64,000 nucleotides of DNA. It comes from Bacilli bacterium (GTDB taxonomy: Bacteria > Bacillota_I > Bacilli_A > ML615J-28 > CAG-313). Shown here piece after piece: positions 50,741 through 60,451 of the stretch. Below the pieces are notes generated by a model. That model saw nothing but the letters and a program-made list of their open reading frames with translations, was not told the DNA's origin and made no database searches. The stretch spans positions 19,473-83,472 of the forward strand of contig JAZSNL010000014.1 of NCBI GenBank assembly GCA_045536365.1, in the 5' to 3' direction. The translations under genes and the position numbers were made by a program. Every line of letters starts with the position of its first letter. Within the stretch, counting starts at the first letter, position 1.

Positions 50741-50855
50741 AAACATCAACCTTTCTTAATATATTATACCAAATTTATCATTAAAGGTAAATCAAAACAT
50801 TAATATTGATAAATTACTAATAAACATATTAAGTAAAAATTTCCTATCATTTATC

Positions 50856-50884
50856 TTGAAATCGTAAATTAATTTTGTTATAAT
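50856..50884 (+). promoter_or_regulatory. consensus sigma-A promoter upstream of the HTH gene and ispG
   Basis: TTGAAA, a 17-nt spacer, then TATAAT. Confidence 0.55.
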
Positions 50885-50914
50885 TAGGTGAATATAAAAG
50901 AATGGAGTTTTATT

Positions 50915-51475
50915 ATGGCAGATACTACTAATCAAGTTGTCTCTCCTGAGACACCAGCTGTTGAAGAACCCAAGAAAAAAATAAAATTATCAAAAATCGA
51001 AAGAAAGAAACTGCGTGTTATTAACAAACTAATCGCTGGTGAAATCAACGGTACTCAAGCAGCTAAAAAACTAGGAATAACAACAAGACAAGTTCGTAAC
51101 TTAAAACGTCAAGTTTTAAATGAAGGAACTGAAGGTGTTATTCATAAAAACAAACAATACAAACCTTACAACACATACGATGAAGAAATCTCAACATTCA
51201 TCTGTAAACTATATCGTCGTGAATATAGAGGAACAAACTTCTCTAAATTCGCAAGAATAGTTCAAGAAGAATACGGAATTGAAGCTTCTCGTAGTACAAT
51301 CTACAACTTCTTACGTCGTGGACACATTCGTTCACCACAAAGAAAGAAGAAAAAGAAAAAGATCGTACAAGTAGTTGACGCAAACGGCAATCCAGTTGAA
51401 CAACCAAAGCCAAAAAAGACAACTACTAAAAAAACAACAAAAACTAAAAAAACAACTAAGACTCCTGCAGAATAA
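50915..51475 (+). CDS. HTH-domain protein resembling the N-terminal (non-catalytic) region of IS481/ISNCY-type transposases, with lysine-rich C-terminal tail; no DDE domain
   Basis: RBS ggag 7 nt before the ATG at 50915 (the listed ORF starts earlier). LSKIERKKLRVINKLIAGEINGTQAAKKLGITTRQVRNLKRQVLNEGTEGVIHKNK and ...FSKFARIVQEEYGIEASRSTIYNFLRRG follow the pattern of transposase N-terminal HTH plus helper regions. The ORF then terminates in KKKKKK...KKTTTKKTTKTKKTTKTPAE. Confidence 0.5.
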   Translation: MADTTNQVVSPETPAVEEPKKKIKLSKIERKKLRVINKLIAGEINGTQAAKKLGITTRQVRNLKRQVLNEGTEGVIHKNKQYKPYNTYDEEISTFICKLYRREYRGTNFSKFARIVQEEYGIEASRSTIYNFLRRGHIRSPQRKKKKKKIVQVVDANGNPVEQPKPKKTTTKKTTKTKKTTKTPAE

Positions 51476-51502
51476 TGCGGAGTTTTATTTTAAGGAAAAT
51501 CT

Positions 51503-52543
51503 ATGAAAAAAGAAATCAAAATTGGAAATATTACAATAGGAGGAAACAATCCTATTATAATTCAATCAATGACTAACATTAAAACATCAAATATCAAAGA
51601 CGTAGTTAATCAAATAAACGCTCTTTCTTCAAAAGGTGCTAAAATTGTCCGCCTTGCAGTAGCAGATGAAAATGATGCTTTATCAATAAAAGAAATTAAA
51701 AAACAAGTATCTGTTCCTCTAGTAGCAGATATCCACTTTGATTATAAACTTGCTCTTCTCTCAATCGAAAACGGAGCAGACAAAATTAGAATCAATCCTG
51801 GAAATATCAAAAAAGAAAACCTTATTCATATTATTAATAAAGCAAAAGAATATAACATTCCTATAAGAATAGGTGTAAACAGCGGTTCACTAGAAAAAGA
51901 GCTATACGATAAACATGGAGTCACAACCACTTCTTTATACGAATCATTAATTAATCATATTAAATTCTTTGAAGACAATGACTTTACTAACCTAGTTCTT
52001 TCAGTCAAATCAACAGATATTCAAACTAACTATGAAGTAAATAAACTTATCTATGAAAACACAAACTATCCTATTCATATAGGATTAACAGAATCTGGTT
52101 CAGTAAAAGCCGGAATTATTCGATCAAGCTATGCCTTAGGAACCTTAATTAAAGAAGGAATAGGTAATACTATTCGTGTTTCTTTAACAGGTGATCCAAT
52201 AAATGAAATCGGTGTTGCAAAAGAAATTCTTTCAATGTTTAACAAATACGATAAACCTACTCTAATTTGTTGTCCTACTTGTGGTAGAACACAATACGAT
52301 ATGGAACCGATTGTAAACGAAATCGAAGAATTTTTAAGCACTATTAACACACCTTTAAAAGTTGCAATAATGGGTTGTGCAGTCAATGGTCCTGGTGAAG
52401 CAAGAGATGCTGATATTGGTATTGCAGGCGGAGTTAATGAAGCATTATTATTTAAAAAAGGAACTCCAATTAAAAAAGTTCCTCAAGATCAAATTATTAA
52501 TGTTTTAAAACAAGAAATTATAGAAATAATAAAAAGCAGATAA
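51503..52543 (+). CDS. ispG: 4-hydroxy-3-methylbut-2-en-1-yl diphosphate synthase (flavodoxin-type)
   Basis: 346 aa. IKIGNITIGGNNPIIIQSMTN N-terminus and C-terminal Cys ligands CPTCGRT...GCAVNGPGE of GcpE. Confidence 0.9.
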   Translation: MKKEIKIGNITIGGNNPIIIQSMTNIKTSNIKDVVNQINALSSKGAKIVRLAVADENDALSIKEIKKQVSVPLVADIHFDYKLALLSIENGADKIRINPGNIKKENLIHIINKAKEYNIPIRIGVNSGSLEKELYDKHGVTTTSLYESLINHIKFFEDNDFTNLVLSVKSTDIQTNYEVNKLIYENTNYPIHIGLTESGSVKAGIIRSSYALGTLIKEGIGNTIRVSLTGDPINEIGVAKEILSMFNKYDKPTLICCPTCGRTQYDMEPIVNEIEEFLSTINTPLKVAIMGCAVNGPGEARDADIGIAGGVNEALLFKKGTPIKKVPQDQIINVLKQEIIEIIKSR

Positions 52544-52559
52544 AATCTGCTTTTTTTAT
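52531..52559. terminator. bidirectional terminator between ispG (+) and the TIR gene (-)
   Basis: aaaaagcagat-aaaa-tctgcttttt hairpin plus T-run. The TIR gene's stop codon lies within it. Confidence 0.65.
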
Positions 52560-53584
52560 TTTAAGATAGTTTTTTCATCAACAACTTCAAGTAATTCTTT
52601 TTCCATTCTTTCAATATCAAAATTACTATTTAAATAATCAATATATTGATATTTAGATAATTCTTTATAAAAATCAGTTAAAAACTCTGTTTTATCTAAT
52701 CTTACAGCAACCATTTTTTTCTTCAACTTCTTAGCTGTTTTTAATTCCGTATAAACATAAGAATCAACTTTCATTGAATTTTTAGAAGTAAAAACTAATA
52801 ACATTGCACTTTGTTTTATTTTGCTACCTAAAACTTTTTCCCAATCGGCTCCTTTTTTAATATCATCATCGTACCAAACGCGACATTTCAATTGTTGTAA
52901 CATTGACAATATTATTTTAACTCTTTTAAAATCTTTATGATTATAACTGATAAAAACAAAAGGATCATTACCGTCATAAGGTAAATCAACATATTTTAAA
53001 TTATTCATCTTCTTTTCTTTTTGTTTACCTTTTTTAATAATATAATCAAATTGTTTAAATAAAGATTTTTTATTTAATACACTATCCTCTCCAGCATATA
53101 CTACTAATTCATCAAACGATGAGCGATAATCAATATATAATTTTTTTATTTCTTTCGCCATTTCTAATCTTTCTTTTTTATCATCTTCTGATAAATCAGT
53201 TCTTGCGAAAGTCATTTCTTCTAATATTACAGCATCAACATATGCACATATTACAGTTACATAATTAGAATACATTTGTTTTAATGTTCTAATTAATTCA
53301 ATATTATGAGCAGATAACGTTAATAAAATATCTTTTTTACCCTTTATTCCATCCTCAAATTGACTTAAATTAAAACCTATATATCTTTTTCGATTAAAAT
53401 ATTTAAAATCACATCTATCTACTTCTTCATAAGAAACGTGATTTTTCTTCTTATCAACAATTTTTCTATCCAATTCAGGATCATATATCAACTTATTAAC
53501 ATATTCAAACTTATGTTTTGTTTTTAAATATTCAATACATTCATTACCAAATTCACCCATAGTTCCAAATAAAATAACTAACAT
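52556..53584 (-). CDS. TIR-domain protein: unknown ~200-aa N-terminal domain + C-terminal TIR domain
   Basis: 342 aa. C-terminal PFVFISYNHKDFKRVKIILSMLQQLKCRVWYDDDIKKGADWEKVLGSKIKQSAMLLVFTSKNSMKVDSYVYTELK is the bacterial TIR pattern (FISY..D, W.D...G..W, candidate catalytic Glu in YTEL). N-terminal LVILFGTMGEFGNE resembles a degenerate P-loop with no Lys. RBS aggagg 5 nt before the ATG. Confidence 0.65.
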   Translation of the reverse strand: MLVILFGTMGEFGNECIEYLKTKHKFEYVNKLIYDPELDRKIVDKKKNHVSYEEVDRCDFKYFNRKRYIGFNLSQFEDGIKGKKDILLTLSAHNIELIRTLKQMYSNYVTVICAYVDAVILEEMTFARTDLSEDDKKERLEMAKEIKKLYIDYRSSFDELVVYAGEDSVLNKKSLFKQFDYIIKKGKQKEKKMNNLKYVDLPYDGNDPFVFISYNHKDFKRVKIILSMLQQLKCRVWYDDDIKKGADWEKVLGSKIKQSAMLLVFTSKNSMKVDSYVYTELKTAKKLKKKMVAVRLDKTEFLTDFYKELSKYQYIDYLNSNFDIERMEKELLEVVDEKTILK

Positions 53585-53695: not shown

Positions 53696-56600
53696 TTATT
53701 CTAATGTAGCTTTATAAGCAGCGTATGCAGCATCTAACGCATCTTTACTTGCAAGAACACCATAATCAGATGTTGCTGTAGTTTGAGCAGCAGCATAATA
53801 GTTATTAGTATAAGTTATTGTACCTGAGCCTTTTGTAGTTAATTTAAATGCAGTCTGACTATCTAAATAGTTATACATAATATTTTGTTTAGATCCTGTT
53901 TGACAATCAACAAAGTTAAATATATTACCTCCAAGATTATATAATTCATTACCAATAAATGTAACAGATGAATTAGCAGTTTGATTAGGGAAATAGAATC
54001 CTGAACCAATTCCTGTTCCTCCATTGAATACATTATCTTGAACAGTAATAGTAACATCTTGTGTCATTAAAGGTCTAATGTATAAAGTATAATTGGCTGT
54101 TGCCCATAAACATTCATTATTATTGAAAACGAATGTTCCGCGTACATCGTTACATCTTGCTACTTCACTATTTGAATGAGATGTACCACCATTGCTGAAT
54201 TTATTATTTTGTATATCAGCATTAGTAAGTGTACCATAAATTGCCATTGCGTTTCTTCCAGCGGCACCAGTACATGTTATATTGTTACCGATAAATACAA
54301 AACCGTTGATTGCAACATCACTTGCAATGATTCCTGTTCTACCACCAGTAGTTGACTTACCTGTACCTGTAATAATATTATTTTTAACTGTTAAATTACT
54401 AGTTGCAGTTGCTACGTAAATAGCAGATCCAGTACCTGTTATTGATACACCATTCAAAGTAAATCCAGTCGCACTTACTGAAACAAGACCTTTAATAATT
54501 GCTTCAGAACTTCTTGTTTCATTATAAGCAACACCGTAGTTAGGACCTACTAATTTAATGTTTGCAACAGAAATAGTTAATGCTTCTGAATATGTTCCAG
54601 CAAATACATAAATTACATCATTTTCTTGTGCAGCTTCTAAAGCAGCAGTAATAGATGTAAAGATTTGAGTTCCATATGAATACTTAGTTCCATTAATTCT
54701 ATAATTAGAAACTTCGAATCCAGCATTTACAAATAATGTAGGAGCAGCTTCAGTAATTGTTGCAGCTTCTTCATCTGTTAATTCTAATTCAATAACTTCA
54801 TCTTCAGCCCATTTAGCATATAATTGATATGCTTTTTGAGAGCCTGCTTCGATTTCAGTTAATGGAGAACCTGTAAATTCAGCATTGTCATACCAACCAC
54901 CAAAGATATAACCTTCTAAACTTGGAGTAGGTAAAGCAGTTCCATCTGCTTTTAAATATTTTTCAGCGTAATTGCTACGATCAAATGCTTCTTGAGAATA
55001 TACAGTACCAGTAATAGTACAACTTGAAGATGTTTCAGCAGGAATACCAGCAAGAGTTACATATGAACCAATATAAGTTGCTTTATTATTATAAATATTT
55101 GCTAAGCTTTCATTTTCAGCAGCTGCAGGATCATACCATGTAATTGCATAATTATAAGGTTTAGTAATATTTGCATTTCCACTTACGATTTCAGAAATTA
55201 CATATAAATCTTCAATTTGAGTTTCTTGTAATAAAATATAGTACCAGTATTTAGGAGTTGCAGTTGTTAACATACCATTTCCAGCACCTCCACTATTATA
55301 TGTTAAATATCTTGTAACTGTAAATGTAGTTTGAACTTTTTCTGAGTCGTATACCCATTCAGTACCCATGTTATATGATATTTCATAAGCATTTTCAACC
55401 CAATTAGCATATAATGTTACATTTCCAGCAGAACCGCTTTCAATCTTGGTAATAGCTTCACCTGCGAATTCAGCATTATCATACCAACCAAGGAATGTAT
55501 GATTTTCTTTTGTTGGAGTTAATAAAGTGATATCAGCAGAATTAACGTTATATTTTGCAGGAGCAAATAATGCAGTACATCCAGCTTTAATCGCAGAATC
55601 AGAGTAATCAGCAGTAACAAAGTTAGCATTTTGAGTATATTTAGCTTGTCCTACCCAACCTCTTAATTCATAAGCAATTTCATAGATATAGTTACCATTT
55701 GCTGCATGTAATTCAGCTTGAGAATTATATTTATTGAAGTTAGAATAAGCAGGTTTGTTAGCACTGCTAGCAACTGTAGCAATATATTGAACTAACCAAT
55801 TCCATTTAGCTCTATAAGTAGCATTGTATAAGAATAATGAAGCATCACTTATTTCATCCCATGAACCTAATGCATAGAATGTTTCAACTGTATGAGTTTT
55901 ACCTCTTGCAGCGTTATAATCAGCTAAGAAATCTGCAACTGCAGCTTCATATGATTCGTATTGAATTAATGAACCACCATCTAATTCATAAGAAATAGTA
56001 TAAGTTGCTAATTCCCAAACTGCTGTTAATTCAATAACACCAACTACAGGAGTTTCAAAATCATAATCAACACCATTTAATTGCCATTTAACAAATGTAT
56101 ATCCTTTTAATTCAGGATCAACTGGTTTTTCTGCTTTTGAACCATGGTTAACATTTTGAGTTTCAACATCAGAACCACCATTTGAATTAAATGTTACAGC
56201 ATAAGTAATAGCCTCAAATCCAGCATATAATTTTAAATCACCAGTAGCAGTTGTAGGGATTTCAGTTAATGCATCACCAGTTAAGTCTGCATTTAAGAAC
56301 CAACCTAAGAAAGTATAACCATCTTTTGTTGCGTTAGGTAATGCAGTTGCAACACCTTCAATATATTCAGTAGGTAATCCTTCTGCAGTACCACCATTTA
56401 ATTCATAAGAAAGATTTGAAGAGATAGCGTTAGCCATCCAACCAGCATATAACACTATATCGTTATTATCATCTTTTGTTATTTCAGTAATAGGAGCACC
56501 TGTGCATTCAGCATTATCAAACCAACCAGTAAATGTATAATCAGTTCTAGTAGGAGTAGGTAATACTAATCCAAATCCAACTTTATAGAATGTAGGAGCA

Positions 56601-59600
56601 TCTACTAATGTACCTTCGTTTAAATTTAATGTTAATGATTTAGAAGGAGCCATGAAATAAGCATATTCATATTTTCTTGTTTCTTCATCAGCTAAAGCAC
56701 TACCTGCAGTAACACCAGCACCAGTAACAGTAGCAGGAACAGAATTTAATACTTGTCCTTCAGAATCTAAGTATAAGTTCTTATCAAATTGAACTGGTTT
56801 ACCACCGTTAATATGAACATACTTAGTAACATTTTCGAATACATTGAATCTTACATCAACTAATGTAGCAGATACACCAGATTCAAATAGACCATCAATA
56901 TTTTGAGTATCACCAGTGAAATGATTATCATAAACTAATGCAGAACCAATTCTAATTCTTAATAATGCAGCTGCAGAGTTAGATACACCACCACATGTTG
57001 AAGCATCAACATTATTAGAAATAAAGTTAACTTTTTCTAATCCAGCAGTTACCCATACAAAGAATTGACCGATATTATCAATATCACAATTTTGAACTGT
57101 TAATACAACTGGGTTAGTAGTAGAAATAGTTCCTTTATAGAATGTATTCATTCTAGTAATATGACAATTATTAAATGTTAAATTATAGGCTTTACTACTA
57201 GGTTGGAAATAAACACCTGCAGATGTTGCAGCAGCAGAACCTCTAAGAGTAACTGATTCAAATCTAATATCACTTGCAGCAACATTACTAGATACATTAG
57301 CAGTAACTGTAATTTCAACACCTTCAACACTTTGACCTACAAATGTTAATGACTTATTAATAACAGAGCCTAATGTATATTTACCATCTAAGATATTAAT
57401 AACAGAATCATTTTTTGCAGATGAAATAGCATCATTTAAGTTATTAAATAAGTTAACACCATAGAAATAATGATTTTCATTATATAGAACACATGCATTT
57501 TCAACAGCATCAGCTGCTACTACTATATTAGTAACATCAGCTGCCACTACTGTAAATTCAATAGTTCCTTTAATTAAAGGATCAATCATTGAAGAAACAG
57601 TAATTATAACATTACCTTCAGCAATAAATTTAACAATACCATTTTCAACAGTTGCAATTTCTTCATTAGCAGAAGCATAAGAAACTAAAGTTTGATATCC
57701 TTCAGGTCCTTCAAATGCTAATTGTAATGCTAAACTAGCACCTAACATAACTTTATTTGTAGTTGCAGAAACTGTAATTGATGTTGGAGCAACTGGTTCA
57801 ACAATAATTAATAATGCTTTCTTAGCAGCATCTAATGCTTCTTCAACACCTTCAACAGAAGTTGCAGCTGCGATTAAGCCTTTTTGAACTTCTAATTCAG
57901 CAGCAAATTCATCATAATTTTCTTCATATTTAGAAGCTTTAACGATTTCATCAGTTAAAATATATTCAGCTAATGCTTCTTGAGCAAGATTCTTAGCATT
58001 ATCAACAACATGAATCCATTTAGCATGTAATTCAAGATTACCTGTAGAACCTTTTTCAATCTTAGCGATTGCATTACCGTTAAATTCTGCATTATCAAAC
58101 CAACCTAAGAAAATGTGATCAGCTTTAATAGGTTGTATTAATTCAATATCTTCAGACTCAACAGTATATTTAGAATCAGCTAAGCAAGCCATAAATTTAG
58201 TTTTTACTTCTTCAGTTGAGTAATCGGCTGTATGATAGTTAGCATTCTCAGTATATTTAATTTGTCCTACCCAACCTCTTAATTCATAAGCTATACTGTA
58301 AATATAGTTACTATTAACAGCATTAAATTCAGCTTGACTATCATGATCATTAAATGCTTCCCAAGCTTTCTTATTAGCAGAACCAGCAACACTTGCAATA
58401 TAATCTACTAACCAAGTCCATTTAGCACGATAATTAGCATTATATAAGAATAATGATGCAGCGCCAATTTCACCCCAAGAGCCTAAAGAAGAGAAAGATT
58501 CAACAGTATGAGAAGTTCCTCTTGCAGCATTATAATCTTTTAAGAAATCAGCAACAGCTTCTTCGTATGACGCATAATTTCTTAAAATACCTTCATTAGT
58601 ATTATAAGAAATACTATATTCAACAATTTTCCAAGTTGCAACAACTTCTACATCTTCTGCAGGCATTGTAGCAGGAACTTCAGGCATCCAACCAGTAAAT
58701 GTATAACCAGCTTTTTCAGGTGCAGCAACAGCGGCAATTTCTTCTAAGTAGTCATATTCAACTTCTTGTTTAACACCATCAACATTAATTGTTAATGTAT
58801 ATTGATTAATTGTCCACTCAGCAACAACTTCTACATCTTCTGCAGGCATTGTAGCAGGAACAGCAGGTGTCCAACCAGCGAAAGTGTAACCAACTTTTTC
58901 AGGTGCAGCTGGAGCAGCAACTTCAGCTTGATAGTTATATTTAACAGTTTGTTTAACACCATCAACATTAATTGTTAATGTATATTGGTTAATTGTCCAT
59001 AAAGCAACAACTTCAATATCAGTAGCAGGCATTGTTGTAGGAATAGCAGCAGACCAAGAAGAGAATGTATAACCAACTTTTTCAGGTGCAGCTGGAGCAG
59101 CAACTTCTTCTTGATATTTATATTCAACAACTTCTTTAACACCATCAACATCAACTGTTAATGTATAAGAATTTCTTGAATAATATACTCTTAATACAAG
59201 AGATCCATCAGCTAAGATAGTAGCTGATTCTAAAGCATCTTTATGTTCAGCATTATGTTCAAAACCAGTAACTGTTCTAACAACAGCTTCTGCTTCAGAA
59301 CCAGTTTCACCAAATAATGATTCAACTTTTGCATCTTTCACATAAGAGCCATCTAATGCTTCAAAGTAATGTTCAACTTTATAAGCAGTATTTGTATTAG
59401 ATGTCCATGTTGCAACTAATTCTAAATCCTTAGCAGGCATAGATAATTCAGCAAATGCTTCGCCTTCTAGTGTCCAGCCTAAGAATGTATAACCAGTTTT
59501 AGCAGCAACACCTAAATTTAATGCTTGGCCGTATTTATAAGTTTGAGCTTCTTTTTCTTCTCCACCAGCAGCATCAAATGTTACTTTGTAAGAATTTCTA

Positions 59601-60451
59601 GAATAATAAACTTTTAATACAAGTGATCCATCAGCAGCAATTTGAGCTTCTTCTAAAGATTCAGGATGTTTTTCATTATGAGTAAATCCTTCTTTTACTA
59701 ATGCTTCAGCTTCTACTAATTCTTCAGTAGTACCAGCTAATTTTTCACTTGATTCTAATTTATATGTTCCATCTAAAGCTTCAAAGTAATGTTCAACTGC
59801 ATATGCAGTATCATCATTAGCTTCCCATTTTGCATATAATTCGATTGCTTCTTCTGTTAAAACAGTATTCCAATCAAATAAACTAGTTAAAGTTTTATCA
59901 TACCAACCAAGGAATGTATAACCAACTCTTGTAGGATCAGCTGGTTGTTTACCTTGTAATGTTTGACCTACTTCAACTTCAACGATAGGTTCAACTGCAG
60001 TTCCACCATTTGAAATGAAACTTACTGTTCCACCAAATTGTTTATATGCAACTTGTACATATACTTTACCTTCGTTATCACAGATAGCTTCAGTAATATT
60101 TAATAAATTATTAACTTCAGCCTCTGGATCTAGATCGATAGGTTCTTTTTCATCATTTAATAATACCCAATAAACTTCGTAAGAAGATGGAATTTCATAA
60201 CCATCAGCTTTTAATTGATCACGAATTTGAGGTATTTGAGAAACTAAAAGAGTTTCTCCTTTTACAACTTCGATTTCTTTAGTTGATACAACAGTACCTG
60301 CTGCATCATTAAAGATGAAGACTACTTTATAAGTATCTAGTTTTGAACTATCAACAGGTCCATGATCTAAAGAACATGATCCAAGTGTTAATGCGATAGC
60401 AGCAAAAACAAGAATAAATAAAGCTTTAATACGAGACTTTACATTTTTCAT
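53696..60451 (-). CDS. giant cell-surface lipoprotein (2251 aa) with Listeria-Bacteroides repeats, parallel beta-helix (pectate-lyase-like) regions, Big_2 domain and internal duplicated modules
   Basis: Lipobox LTLGSCS. At least 10 GYTF.GW...A.W motifs (PF09479-type). Two regions dense in NN..TGTG / GxNxxC beta-helix repeats. Big_2-like segment ITVSATTNKVMLGASLALQ...IITVSS. Three tandem 59-aa repeats and two ~130-aa duplicated modules. Confidence 0.8.
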   Translation of the reverse strand: MKNVKSRIKALFILVFAAIALTLGSCSLDHGPVDSSKLDTYKVVFIFNDAAGTVVSTKEIEVVKGETLLVSQIPQIRDQLKADGYEIPSSYEVYWVLLNDEKEPIDLDPEAEVNNLLNITEAICDNEGKVYVQVAYKQFGGTVSFISNGGTAVEPIVEVEVGQTLQGKQPADPTRVGYTFLGWYDKTLTSLFDWNTVLTEEAIELYAKWEANDDTAYAVEHYFEALDGTYKLESSEKLAGTTEELVEAEALVKEGFTHNEKHPESLEEAQIAADGSLVLKVYYSRNSYKVTFDAAGGEEKEAQTYKYGQALNLGVAAKTGYTFLGWTLEGEAFAELSMPAKDLELVATWTSNTNTAYKVEHYFEALDGSYVKDAKVESLFGETGSEAEAVVRTVTGFEHNAEHKDALESATILADGSLVLRVYYSRNSYTLTVDVDGVKEVVEYKYQEEVAAPAAPEKVGYTFSSWSAAIPTTMPATDIEVVALWTINQYTLTINVDGVKQTVKYNYQAEVAAPAAPEKVGYTFAGWTPAVPATMPAEDVEVVAEWTINQYTLTINVDGVKQEVEYDYLEEIAAVAAPEKAGYTFTGWMPEVPATMPAEDVEVVATWKIVEYSISYNTNEGILRNYASYEEAVADFLKDYNAARGTSHTVESFSSLGSWGEIGAASLFLYNANYRAKWTWLVDYIASVAGSANKKAWEAFNDHDSQAEFNAVNSNYIYSIAYELRGWVGQIKYTENANYHTADYSTEEVKTKFMACLADSKYTVESEDIELIQPIKADHIFLGWFDNAEFNGNAIAKIEKGSTGNLELHAKWIHVVDNAKNLAQEALAEYILTDEIVKASKYEENYDEFAAELEVQKGLIAAATSVEGVEEALDAAKKALLIIVEPVAPTSITVSATTNKVMLGASLALQLAFEGPEGYQTLVSYASANEEIATVENGIVKFIAEGNVIITVSSMIDPLIKGTIEFTVVAADVTNIVVAADAVENACVLYNENHYFYGVNLFNNLNDAISSAKNDSVINILDGKYTLGSVINKSLTFVGQSVEGVEITVTANVSSNVAASDIRFESVTLRGSAAATSAGVYFQPSSKAYNLTFNNCHITRMNTFYKGTISTTNPVVLTVQNCDIDNIGQFFVWVTAGLEKVNFISNNVDASTCGGVSNSAAALLRIRIGSALVYDNHFTGDTQNIDGLFESGVSATLVDVRFNVFENVTKYVHINGGKPVQFDKNLYLDSEGQVLNSVPATVTGAGVTAGSALADEETRKYEYAYFMAPSKSLTLNLNEGTLVDAPTFYKVGFGLVLPTPTRTDYTFTGWFDNAECTGAPITEITKDDNNDIVLYAGWMANAISSNLSYELNGGTAEGLPTEYIEGVATALPNATKDGYTFLGWFLNADLTGDALTEIPTTATGDLKLYAGFEAITYAVTFNSNGGSDVETQNVNHGSKAEKPVDPELKGYTFVKWQLNGVDYDFETPVVGVIELTAVWELATYTISYELDGGSLIQYESYEAAVADFLADYNAARGKTHTVETFYALGSWDEISDASLFLYNATYRAKWNWLVQYIATVASSANKPAYSNFNKYNSQAELHAANGNYIYEIAYELRGWVGQAKYTQNANFVTADYSDSAIKAGCTALFAPAKYNVNSADITLLTPTKENHTFLGWYDNAEFAGEAITKIESGSAGNVTLYANWVENAYEISYNMGTEWVYDSEKVQTTFTVTRYLTYNSGGAGNGMLTTATPKYWYYILLQETQIEDLYVISEIVSGNANITKPYNYAITWYDPAAAENESLANIYNNKATYIGSYVTLAGIPAETSSSCTITGTVYSQEAFDRSNYAEKYLKADGTALPTPSLEGYIFGGWYDNAEFTGSPLTEIEAGSQKAYQLYAKWAEDEVIELELTDEEAATITEAAPTLFVNAGFEVSNYRINGTKYSYGTQIFTSITAALEAAQENDVIYVFAGTYSEALTISVANIKLVGPNYGVAYNETRSSEAIIKGLVSVSATGFTLNGVSITGTGSAIYVATATSNLTVKNNIITGTGKSTTGGRTGIIASDVAINGFVFIGNNITCTGAAGRNAMAIYGTLTNADIQNNKFSNGGTSHSNSEVARCNDVRGTFVFNNNECLWATANYTLYIRPLMTQDVTITVQDNVFNGGTGIGSGFYFPNQTANSSVTFIGNELYNLGGNIFNFVDCQTGSKQNIMYNYLDSQTAFKLTTKGSGTITYTNNYYAAAQTTATSDYGVLASKDALDAAYAAYKATLE
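58640..59170. repeat. three tandem 177-nt repeats inside the giant lipoprotein gene
   Basis: Encode YTLT(I/V)(N/D)VDGVK...GYTF.GW...EDVEVVA.W (59 aa) x3. Near-identical DNA copies are visible at 58.75-59.15 kb. Confidence 0.75.

Follow-up and report, generated by a model that had tools for sequence, protein, structure and literature searches.

Within a 64,000-nucleotide stretch of a Bacilli bacterium genome (contig JAZSNL010000014.1; hereafter the window, 27% GC), the gene directly upstream of ispG encodes a 186-residue protein built around a helix-turn-helix (HTH) region, termed here the HTH protein, and its gene the HTH gene. This gene is almost certainly the DNA-binding region of an ISNCY-family transposase that has been domesticated as a host gene. 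It is a single-copy gene present across a deep clade of low-GC Bacilli, where it co-diverges with ispG, and the purifying selection on its product is stronger than that on IspG. Regarding its function, we hold the chances to be about evenly balanced that the HTH protein is an autoregulated, abundant and broadly acting DNA-binding protein, the promoter of which also feeds ispG.

Profile searches against transposase families revealed a clear relationship of the HTH protein to the N-terminal part of ISNCY transposases. Residues 35-148 align to positions 2-115 of the 368-position NCBIfam model ISNCY_2, with an E-value of 2e-22 and a score of 79.8 bits, and the IS481 model is matched at E=2e-10; both scores are far under the cut-offs for full-length members, the curated cut-off of NF033594 (ISNCY family transposase) being 250 bits. 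The Pfam matches comprise generic HTH families only (HTH_28, HTH_23, HTH_29 and HTH_32). Pairwise alignment by BLASTP gave the same relationship: residues 22-149 align over 128 residues without gaps to residues 2-129 of the ISNCY transposases P0135 and P0138, at 37-38% identity and with E-values of 6e-25 and 7e-27. The alignment stops exactly at the basic linker (RSPQRKKKKKK, compared to SPQAKKKKGK or SPKAKRRPKR) that precedes the catalytic domain of the transposases. The three 420-450-residue proteins checked (P0135, P0138 and P0144) are true ISNCY transposases, scoring 360-371 bits against the cut-off of 250. An exhaustive HMMER scan of 1.84 billion cluster representatives separated the short family, at least 48% identical, from all other matches, which reach at most 40%; the latter are headed by 420-450-residue proteins, aligned over their residues 2-130, and also include many shorter proteins and fragments.

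The HTH protein ends 42 residues past the linker, and no DDE/rve catalytic domain was detected in it by Pfam or NCBIfam. Neither a second copy nor a DDE remnant was found in the window by tblastn, and the search for an inverted-repeat pair flanking the HTH gene returned only AT-rich chance matches. A sequence search of the PDB gave marginal matches only, to sigma-28 region 4 and TnsB. Without a catalytic domain, an inverted-repeat pair or mobility, and with a sub-threshold score, the HTH protein falls outside the ISNCY transposase family. These results bear out a sequence-only reading of the locus, which had described a transposase-type HTH region with no DDE domain and no second copy; its further statement that inverted repeats are absent holds for a flanking pair, but overlooked a single relic that resembles the left end of an insertion sequence (IS), described below.

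A search of 5.8 billion proteins yielded 656 matches, the best 120 of which are all 159-224 residues long and 69-96% identical to the window protein. Their source labels are metagenome-assembled genomes of Acholeplasmatales, Anaeroplasma, Bacilli, Mollicutes or 'Staphylococcus sp. CAG:324'; the clade is known mainly from gut and bioreactor metagenomes, under labels that vary among Bacilli, Mollicutes and Acholeplasmatales. We gathered 69 related loci, of which L067-L069 are true transposase loci. In every family locus with readable downstream sequence, more than 60 in total, the short HTH gene lies directly upstream of ispG on the same strand, including the loci of the most divergent members P0129 (48% identity, 150 residues, no tail) and P0122 (61%). 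The exceptions are the chimeric contig L025 and a few contig-end or frameshifted fragments (L032 and L066). The upstream neighbour differs by lineage, being a gene for an RluA-type pseudouridine synthase in most and rpmG or others elsewhere.

The conserved 120-residue core of the HTH protein has a mean identity of 83% to the window protein, whereas IspG and RluA from these loci reach 60% and 55%, and the core identity exceeds that of IspG in 25 of 25 loci. The core is free of indels in most loci. Its proportion of nonsynonymous differences (pN) is 0.10-0.15 at a saturated proportion of synonymous differences (pS) of 0.6-0.8; given that synonymous divergence is saturated for most pairs, these values are read as pN/pS contrasts only, with six loci excluded in which a one-residue indel had shifted the register and produced a spurious pN of about 0.6. 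Pairwise distances of the core and IspG are correlated (r=0.69, slope 0.62), in keeping with co-divergence of the two genes in which the core changes roughly half as fast as IspG (a relative rate of about 0.56). Such strong purifying selection therefore argues for a domesticated gene instead of a dead fragment, as the sequence-only reading had proposed, and the relatives indeed carry the truncated form, with no full-length IS at the site.

A literature search found no description of this protein family, and existing annotation reads 'HTH domain' at most or, wrongly, 'integrase catalytic region'. Although devoid of a catalytic region, the very prevalent orthologue P0111 (indexed in 1,927 blocks of the assembly collection) carries the misleading NCBI name 'integrase catalytic region [Staphylococcus sp. 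CAG:324]'. The one locus with an HTH gene and no ispG, L025, was discarded as a chimeric assembly, in which an in-frame join at the poly-Lys/A-rich run leads into a high-GC region. Along this contig (1-3488) a feoB-like gene follows the high-GC region, and the contig is almost certainly a chimera broken at the low-complexity stretch.

The HTH protein consists of a variable N-terminal extension, the conserved core and a basic low-complexity tail (Table 1). Where it can be delimited in relatives, the extension has 17-48 residues and a charge of 0 to -10. In the AlphaFold2 (AF2) model, the core comprises two three-helix HTH subdomains (helices 27-40, 46-53 and 57-74, and helices 90-103, 109-119 and 126-135), which are connected by an extended, near-invariant linker, HKNKxYKPYNTYD, and thus display a paired-like bipartite HTH architecture. 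The recognition helices TTRQVRNLKRQV and SRSTIYNFLR, together with the terminal IRSPQRK, are almost invariant across the family. The net charge of the core ranges from +13 to +19 across loci, and that of the whole window protein is +27. No ligand-sensing domain was found by Pfam or in the AF2 model. The tail of the window protein, already noticed as extremely basic from the sequence alone, has 42 residues, is rich in Lys and Thr (33% Lys/Arg) and carries a net charge of +11. The tails of relatives span 9-66 residues and are net positive (+4 to +17) in all but one; they are rich in Lys, Thr, Ser, Ala and Pro, with a conserved composition but no alignable sequence.

The six-Lys run at residues 144-149 (51338-51358) is encoded as AAG AAG AAA AAG AAA AAG, four of the six codons being AAG compared to 14% window-wide. 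Its longest A-run is 5 nt, and that of the orthologues is 5-7 nt in 38 of 43; this codon choice is consistent with avoidance of slippery poly(A). The tails of L011, L013, L030 and L038 share a segment, VISYDDQGNKIIQIVRVYDRKT, and a shorter similar segment, IVQVVDANGNPV, occupies residues 150-161 of the window protein (51362-51397), where AF2 predicts a β-bridge. This segment might be a small β-hairpin module or a relic of the first DDE β-strand. A specific derivation of the tail start IVQVVDAN from ELIQVDAS in the first DDE β-strand of the transposase gained no support from the BLAST alignment and was set aside as speculation.

The HTH gene is preceded by a sigma-70-type promoter that matches 11 of 12 consensus positions and has an extended -10 element (TGnTATAAT, 50876-50884, with the TG at 50876-50877). 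The sequence-only reading of a 186-residue ORF (open reading frame) under a TTGAAA-17-TATAAT promoter with a good ribosome-binding site (RBS) is hence correct. The extended -10 element is found in 22 of 31 distinct family promoters, and in 29 of 31 relatives the ATG is preceded, at 4-11 nt, by a Shine-Dalgarno sequence. There is an alternative GTG start at 50888; the relatives start at the ATG, with MA(E/D). A search of Rfam for a riboswitch or leader RNA around the gene gave no match at E≤1.

Alignment of the upstream regions of distinct loci showed unconserved AT-rich sequence except for the -35 element, the extended -10 element and an 8-mer, TTTCCTAT, which forms the core of the box at 50840-50847 in the window. 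Among the distinct family promoters, 21 have this 8-mer on their upstream side. Box and -35 element are mostly 8-9 nt apart, but the spacing ranges from 4 to 43 nt overall, and the box is therefore a candidate for a separate protein-binding site, not a part of the core promoter. In several divergent lineages that lack the box in its usual place, the reverse complement TAGGAA is present just downstream of the -10 element or upstream of the -35 element.

Comparison with the ends of four full-length ISNCY relatives (L067-L070) suggested an origin for the box. Each end of these elements has two direct copies, 24 nt apart, of a 13-nt repeat, A(G/T)AAATGTCCTA(C/G), exemplified by GATAATGTCCTAG and AGAAATGTCCTAC and with AGAAATTTCCTAG and AGAAATGTCCTAT among its natural variants. 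The inner left repeat is found 46-79 nt before the start codon of the transposase gene. With the same orientation, the family box, (A)AAATTTCCTAT, precedes its own ATG by 51-108 nt (by 67-77 nt in the majority of loci) and falls inside the natural variation of the ISNCY repeats. Within the 150-nt upstream regions of 32 distinct family promoters, a position weight matrix (PWM) built solely from 16 IS terminal repeats gave its highest score to the box in about 15 cases, and shuffling returned p≤0.05 for 10 of the 32; the window box scores 12.2 bits and ranks third among about 128,000 positions of the window. Judged from this resemblance, the box is likely a relic of an ISNCY left-end repeat, and it has probably been retained as an autoregulatory operator. 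We infer that domestication took in the complete left end of the IS as a unit, namely the repeat, the promoter and the DNA-binding domain.

In the L008 lineage, a second repeat (AATAATGTCATAT, 11.3 bits) lies 26 nt downstream of the box, inside the promoter spacer. A second IS-like repeat is convincing in this lineage only and was not adopted as a family-wide feature, and an apparent outer repeat at -27 in the window was rejected at -1.4 bits. In the transposase locus L070, the -10 element of the transposase promoter comes directly after the inner left repeat, a layout suited to autorepression.

Table 1 Features of the HTH gene-ispG locus in the window, and regions with a separate ispG promoter in three related loci (numbered within each locus)
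Feature	Coordinates	Strand	Remark
Conserved box AAAAATTTCCTAT	50835..50847	+	Candidate operator; 8 nt upstream of -35
Sigma-70-type promoter	50856..50884	+	-35 TTGAAA 50856-50861, 17-nt spacer, -10 TATAAT 50879-50884
RBS GGAG	50904..50907	+	7 nt 5' of the HTH-gene ATG
HTH gene, coding sequence including stop	50915..51475	+	Intact ORF; 186-residue transposase-derived HTH protein
N-terminal extension, residues 1-24	50915..50986	+	Variable, predicted disordered; AF2 confidence (pLDDT) <50 for residues 1-16
Conserved 120-residue core, residues 25-144	50987..51346	+	AF2 pLDDT >90; ends in IRSPQRK
Basic low-complexity tail, residues 145-186, KKKKKIVQVVDANGNPVEQPKPKKTTTKKTTKTKKTTKTPAE	51347..51472	+	Predicted disordered
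Terminator-like/attenuator hairpin and U-rich run	51457..51491	+	Spans the HTH-gene stop codon
ispG RBS AAGGA	51492-51496	+	
ispG (GcpE)	51503..52543	+	Pfam GcpE 442 bits; start 27 nt past the HTH-gene stop
Region with hairpin and separate ispG promoter TATGATATAAT	L007 4499-4573		In HTH gene-ispG spacer
Region with hairpin and separate ispG promoter TATGTTATACT	L008 4508-4574		In HTH gene-ispG spacer
Region with hairpin and separate ispG promoter TATGTTATAAT	L012 4535-4606		In HTH gene-ispG spacer

Codon usage suggests that the HTH gene is highly expressed. Among the 53 ORFs of the window it ranks first as the strongest codon-bias outlier: the share of C-ending codons for Asn, Tyr, Phe, Ile, His and Asp is 0.68 compared to a median of 0.12 (standard deviation 9%), and CGT makes up 0.64 of its Arg codons compared to a median of 0.14. 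The CGT share of its orthologues is 0.40, compared to 0.15 for ispG, and is the higher of the two in 31 of 39 loci. C-ending codons for Phe, Tyr, Ile and Asn reportedly mark translational selection in highly expressed bacterial genes, according to Sharp and colleagues. The gene with the second-highest C-ending codon bias in the window is ispG itself (0.31). Taken together, the near-consensus promoter, the good Shine-Dalgarno sequence, a dedicated hairpin behind the gene (see below), the codon bias, the very high conservation and the charge of +27 make an abundant DNA-binding protein more plausible than a local repressor present in small amounts.

We propose a model in which the HTH gene derives from the 5' third of an ISNCY insertion sequence, comprising the relic of the left-end repeat, the transposase promoter and the bipartite HTH region. 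The element would have been cut at the basic linker before the DDE domain, the place of which is taken by the Lys/Thr-rich disordered tail. The protein would bind DNA via its two HTH subdomains and recognise the box AAATTTCCTAT in its own promoter as the ancestral transposase did its terminal repeat, which would result in autoregulation, most likely repression, of its own transcription. The extended -10 promoter, the Shine-Dalgarno sequence, the hairpin terminator and the codon bias point to a protein made in large amounts, and the net charge of +27 combined with a histone-H1-like tail would confer broad DNA binding, as expected of a nucleoid-associated or global factor. As ispG appears to have no promoter of its own here, read-through of the hairpin would allow the same autoregulated promoter to set ispG transcription.

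Several observations weigh against this model. The codon bias differs among lineages and is absent in L001, and the window contains no ribosomal-protein genes by which the bias could be calibrated. The box, with its variable distance to the -35 element, is missing from the usual place in about a third of the distinct promoters, and another factor could bind it. Outside the gene's own promoter, related loci totalling about 190 kb show no enrichment of TTTCCTAT (10 observed vs 16 expected), and neither does the window (5 observed vs 6 expected), where the other matches were rejected as regulon sites for their unconvincing promoter contexts; a sequence-specific regulon is therefore unsupported. 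The tail is as short as 9-16 residues, or neutral, in some divergent members, so that an H1-like tail is no family-wide requirement. The AF2 model was built from a shallow alignment of 17 sequences and has a predicted TM-score (pTM) of 0.44. A Foldseek search of the PDB with this model retrieved, in favour of the proposed reading, the N-terminal DNA-binding regions of TnsB, MuA, Mos1 and IstA, the paired domains of Pax5, Prd and Pax6, and CENP-B, but with weak E-values of 6e-3 or worse, because the relative orientation of the two HTH subdomains differs.

The sequence-only reading had the HTH gene heading the ispG transcript, with ispG 27 nt downstream and no terminator in between. The position and identity of ispG proved right, whereas the terminator had been missed: a hairpin at 51457-51487 (-14.3 kcal/mol for this extended stem, z=-4.1; terminator site at 51465-51480) is followed by a U-rich run, the arrangement of an intrinsic terminator with a GC-containing hairpin and a subsequent U-run. 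A hairpin with a T-run follows the HTH gene in 21 of 35 distinct relatives, compared to 0.46 expected from shuffles. No promoter-like site was found between 50884 and 51503 in the window. There and in L001, L004 and L011, the ispG RBS comes immediately after the T-run and no internal promoter-like site is present, so that ispG would be transcribed by read-through. The HTH gene would thus head the ispG transcript by read-through only, and this arrangement is not family-wide. In L007, L008 and L012, ispG has its own extended -10 promoter, without the box, downstream of the hairpin, and co-transcription of the two genes is, as judged from these promoters, uncoupled. In L027 and L048, equally long gaps of 65 and 73 nt contain no detected hairpin, and divergent lineages, in which the spacing is -17 to +16 nt and the genes adjoin or overlap, likewise have none. 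Co-transcription thus varies by lineage and the conservation of the protein does not, which argues that the function of the HTH protein is not limited to ispG.

This variation bears directly on the reading that the HTH protein serves solely to regulate the ispG operon locally, i.e. as a low-abundance repressor or activator that sets the transcription of itself and ispG and hence the flux through the methylerythritol phosphate (MEP) pathway. We consider this reading unlikely, though it accounts for the same-strand adjacency to ispG in all readable family loci, even where the upstream neighbour changes, for the tight operon suggested by the short hairpin-free gaps of divergent members, and for the confinement of the conserved box to the gene's own promoter. 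It sits poorly with L007, L008 and L012, where the core remains 88-89% identical despite the separate, box-less ispG promoters, and with the lack of a ligand-sensing domain. Moreover, evolution of the core at about 0.56 times the rate of IspG would be unusual for such a regulator, and high rather than low expression is suggested by the strength of the promoter, the optimal codons and the dedicated hairpin.

The link to ispG also raises the idea of a histone-like factor responsive to the IspG substrate methylerythritol cyclodiphosphate (MEcPP). This metabolite reportedly detaches Hc1, a Lys-rich histone-like protein of Chlamydia, from DNA, and is also reported to bind E. coli H-NS (Kd about 6 µM) and possibly HU, lowering DNA binding (PMC11582573). 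By analogy, MEcPP would loosen the DNA binding of the HTH protein and couple chromatin or regulatory state and ispG expression to the MEP pathway or to oxidative stress. These reported effects, along with the association of a very basic, H1-tailed DNA-binding protein with ispG across a deep clade, lend the idea some appeal, yet the case is purely circumstantial and we regard it as improbable. No homology of the HTH protein to Hc1 or H-NS was detected, its Pfam and NCBIfam matches being HTH and transposase families only; no binding pocket is evident in the AF2 model, the tail is short in some members, and the site at which the ancestral IS inserted, together with promoter capture, accounts equally well for the position next to ispG. 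A low probability is likewise assigned to a composite in which the transposase DNA-binding domain and its cognate terminal repeat were domesticated as a trans/cis pair, giving rise to an abundant, H1-like chromatin protein. Its lasting genetic linkage to ispG would then reflect a physiological circuit, in which MEcPP, as a stress-responsive metabolite, modulates DNA binding by the protein and, by way of read-through, the expression of ispG.

HTH-only transposase derivatives that repress their own element are known from IS1 (InsA), the IS3 family including IS911 (OrfA) and Tn5 (the inhibitor protein). Similar to these, the HTH protein consists of the N-terminal DNA-binding part of a transposase without the catalytic domain, and is expected to bind an element end that overlaps or adjoins the transposase promoter. 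By contrast, these repressors come from active, mobile, multi-copy elements, whereas the HTH gene is a host gene with ispG downstream and nothing left of the element around it apart from the probable left-end relic, and its product is conserved over deep divergence and has acquired a new basic tail. One might envisage a host-encoded transposition inhibitor that occupies the ends of incoming ISNCY elements and provides immunity in the manner of IS1 InsA or the Tn5 inhibitor, for which exactly the end-binding part of the transposase is retained and a box within natural IS-repeat variation is at hand. This is very unlikely, however, as neither the window nor the flanks of related loci contain an ISNCY copy, the identity to present-day transposase DNA-binding domains is only 37-38%, and conservation above that of an essential enzyme over order-level divergence would be hard to sustain by sporadic IS pressure. 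Finally, a functionless, decaying IS remnant or gene-calling artefact, of which only the promoter is kept to drive ispG, has a negligible probability and is effectively refuted by the conservation data: although selection could act on an IS-derived promoter in front of an essential gene, the ORF is intact in more than 60 loci with a mostly indel-free core, pN is low at saturated pS, the core is more conserved than IspG in each of the 25 loci compared, codon usage is apparently under selection, and the gene is kept where ispG has its own promoter.

Compared to the ISNCY-family DDE transposases (NF033594; P0135 and P0138), the HTH protein has a homologous N-terminal bipartite HTH region and basic linker, and the terminal repeats of these elements resemble the box of the HTH gene in sequence, orientation and position. 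The HTH gene differs in lacking a DDE/rve domain and a right end, and in occupying a single-copy, fixed locus that co-diverges with ispG. It also differs from insertion sequences in general, having no inverted-repeat pair and no second copy in the window, and being found at the same locus in more than 60 contigs. The bipartite two-HTH architecture is shared with CENP-B, which derives from pogo, and with the Pax paired domain, which is related to Tc1/mariner; the evolutionary route is similar as well, with the DNA-binding domain kept and catalysis lost. However, the HTH protein is bacterial and stems from another transposase family, and the structural similarity is weak (E 0.04-0.5), with a different orientation of the subdomains. 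Among bacteria, the TnpB-derived TldR repressors and the IS200/IS605-derived RAYTs are host functions exapted from transposon proteins, but these, an RNA-guided dead nuclease and an HUH enzyme, respectively, are unrelated in fold and mechanism, in contrast to the plain bipartite HTH found here. The tail resembles those of chlamydial Hc1/Hc2 and the C-terminal PAKKA repeats of mycobacterial HupB/MDP1, all being basic, low-complexity segments of Lys with Ala, Thr or Pro that are predicted to be disordered. Nevertheless, the folded module is a transposase-type double HTH and not an HU or H1-like fold, and the tail of the HTH protein is unconserved in sequence and short in some members.

In eukaryotes, there are well-documented cases of transposase DNA-binding domains being exapted, such as CENP-B and Pax, but bacterial examples have rarely been described. 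The HTH gene presents an unusually clean case, in which the protein, the promoter and apparently the binding site all trace to one ISNCY end. It has been fixed over order-level evolution, is more conserved than the adjoining essential enzyme and, in a clade with a wide distribution among human-gut metagenomes, shows features of a highly expressed gene. If the HTH protein is a major nucleoid protein or global regulator of these uncultured, genome-reduced Bacilli, it would fill a gap in their basic chromosome biology and offer a model, open to testing, for the conversion of an autoregulatory IS end into a host circuit. Through its association with ispG, the HTH protein also allows the idea of an MEcPP-nucleoid protein connection to be tested directly in a new system.

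Downstream of ispG, a perfect 11-bp hairpin with T-runs on both sides (52531-52555) lies between the convergent ispG and TIR genes and is likely a bidirectional terminator. The TIR gene (52556-53584, minus strand) encodes a 342-residue protein with a C-terminal TIR_2 domain (Pfam E=6e-17), and is followed by a gene for a 2251-residue, repeat-rich putative surface protein (53696-60451, minus strand). In the relatives L001 and L004, the corresponding position is occupied by nfo (AP endonuclease 2) and a DEAD-box helicase gene, so that the TIR_2 and surface-protein genes resemble an insertion confined to this lineage, with a possible role in defence or at the cell surface.

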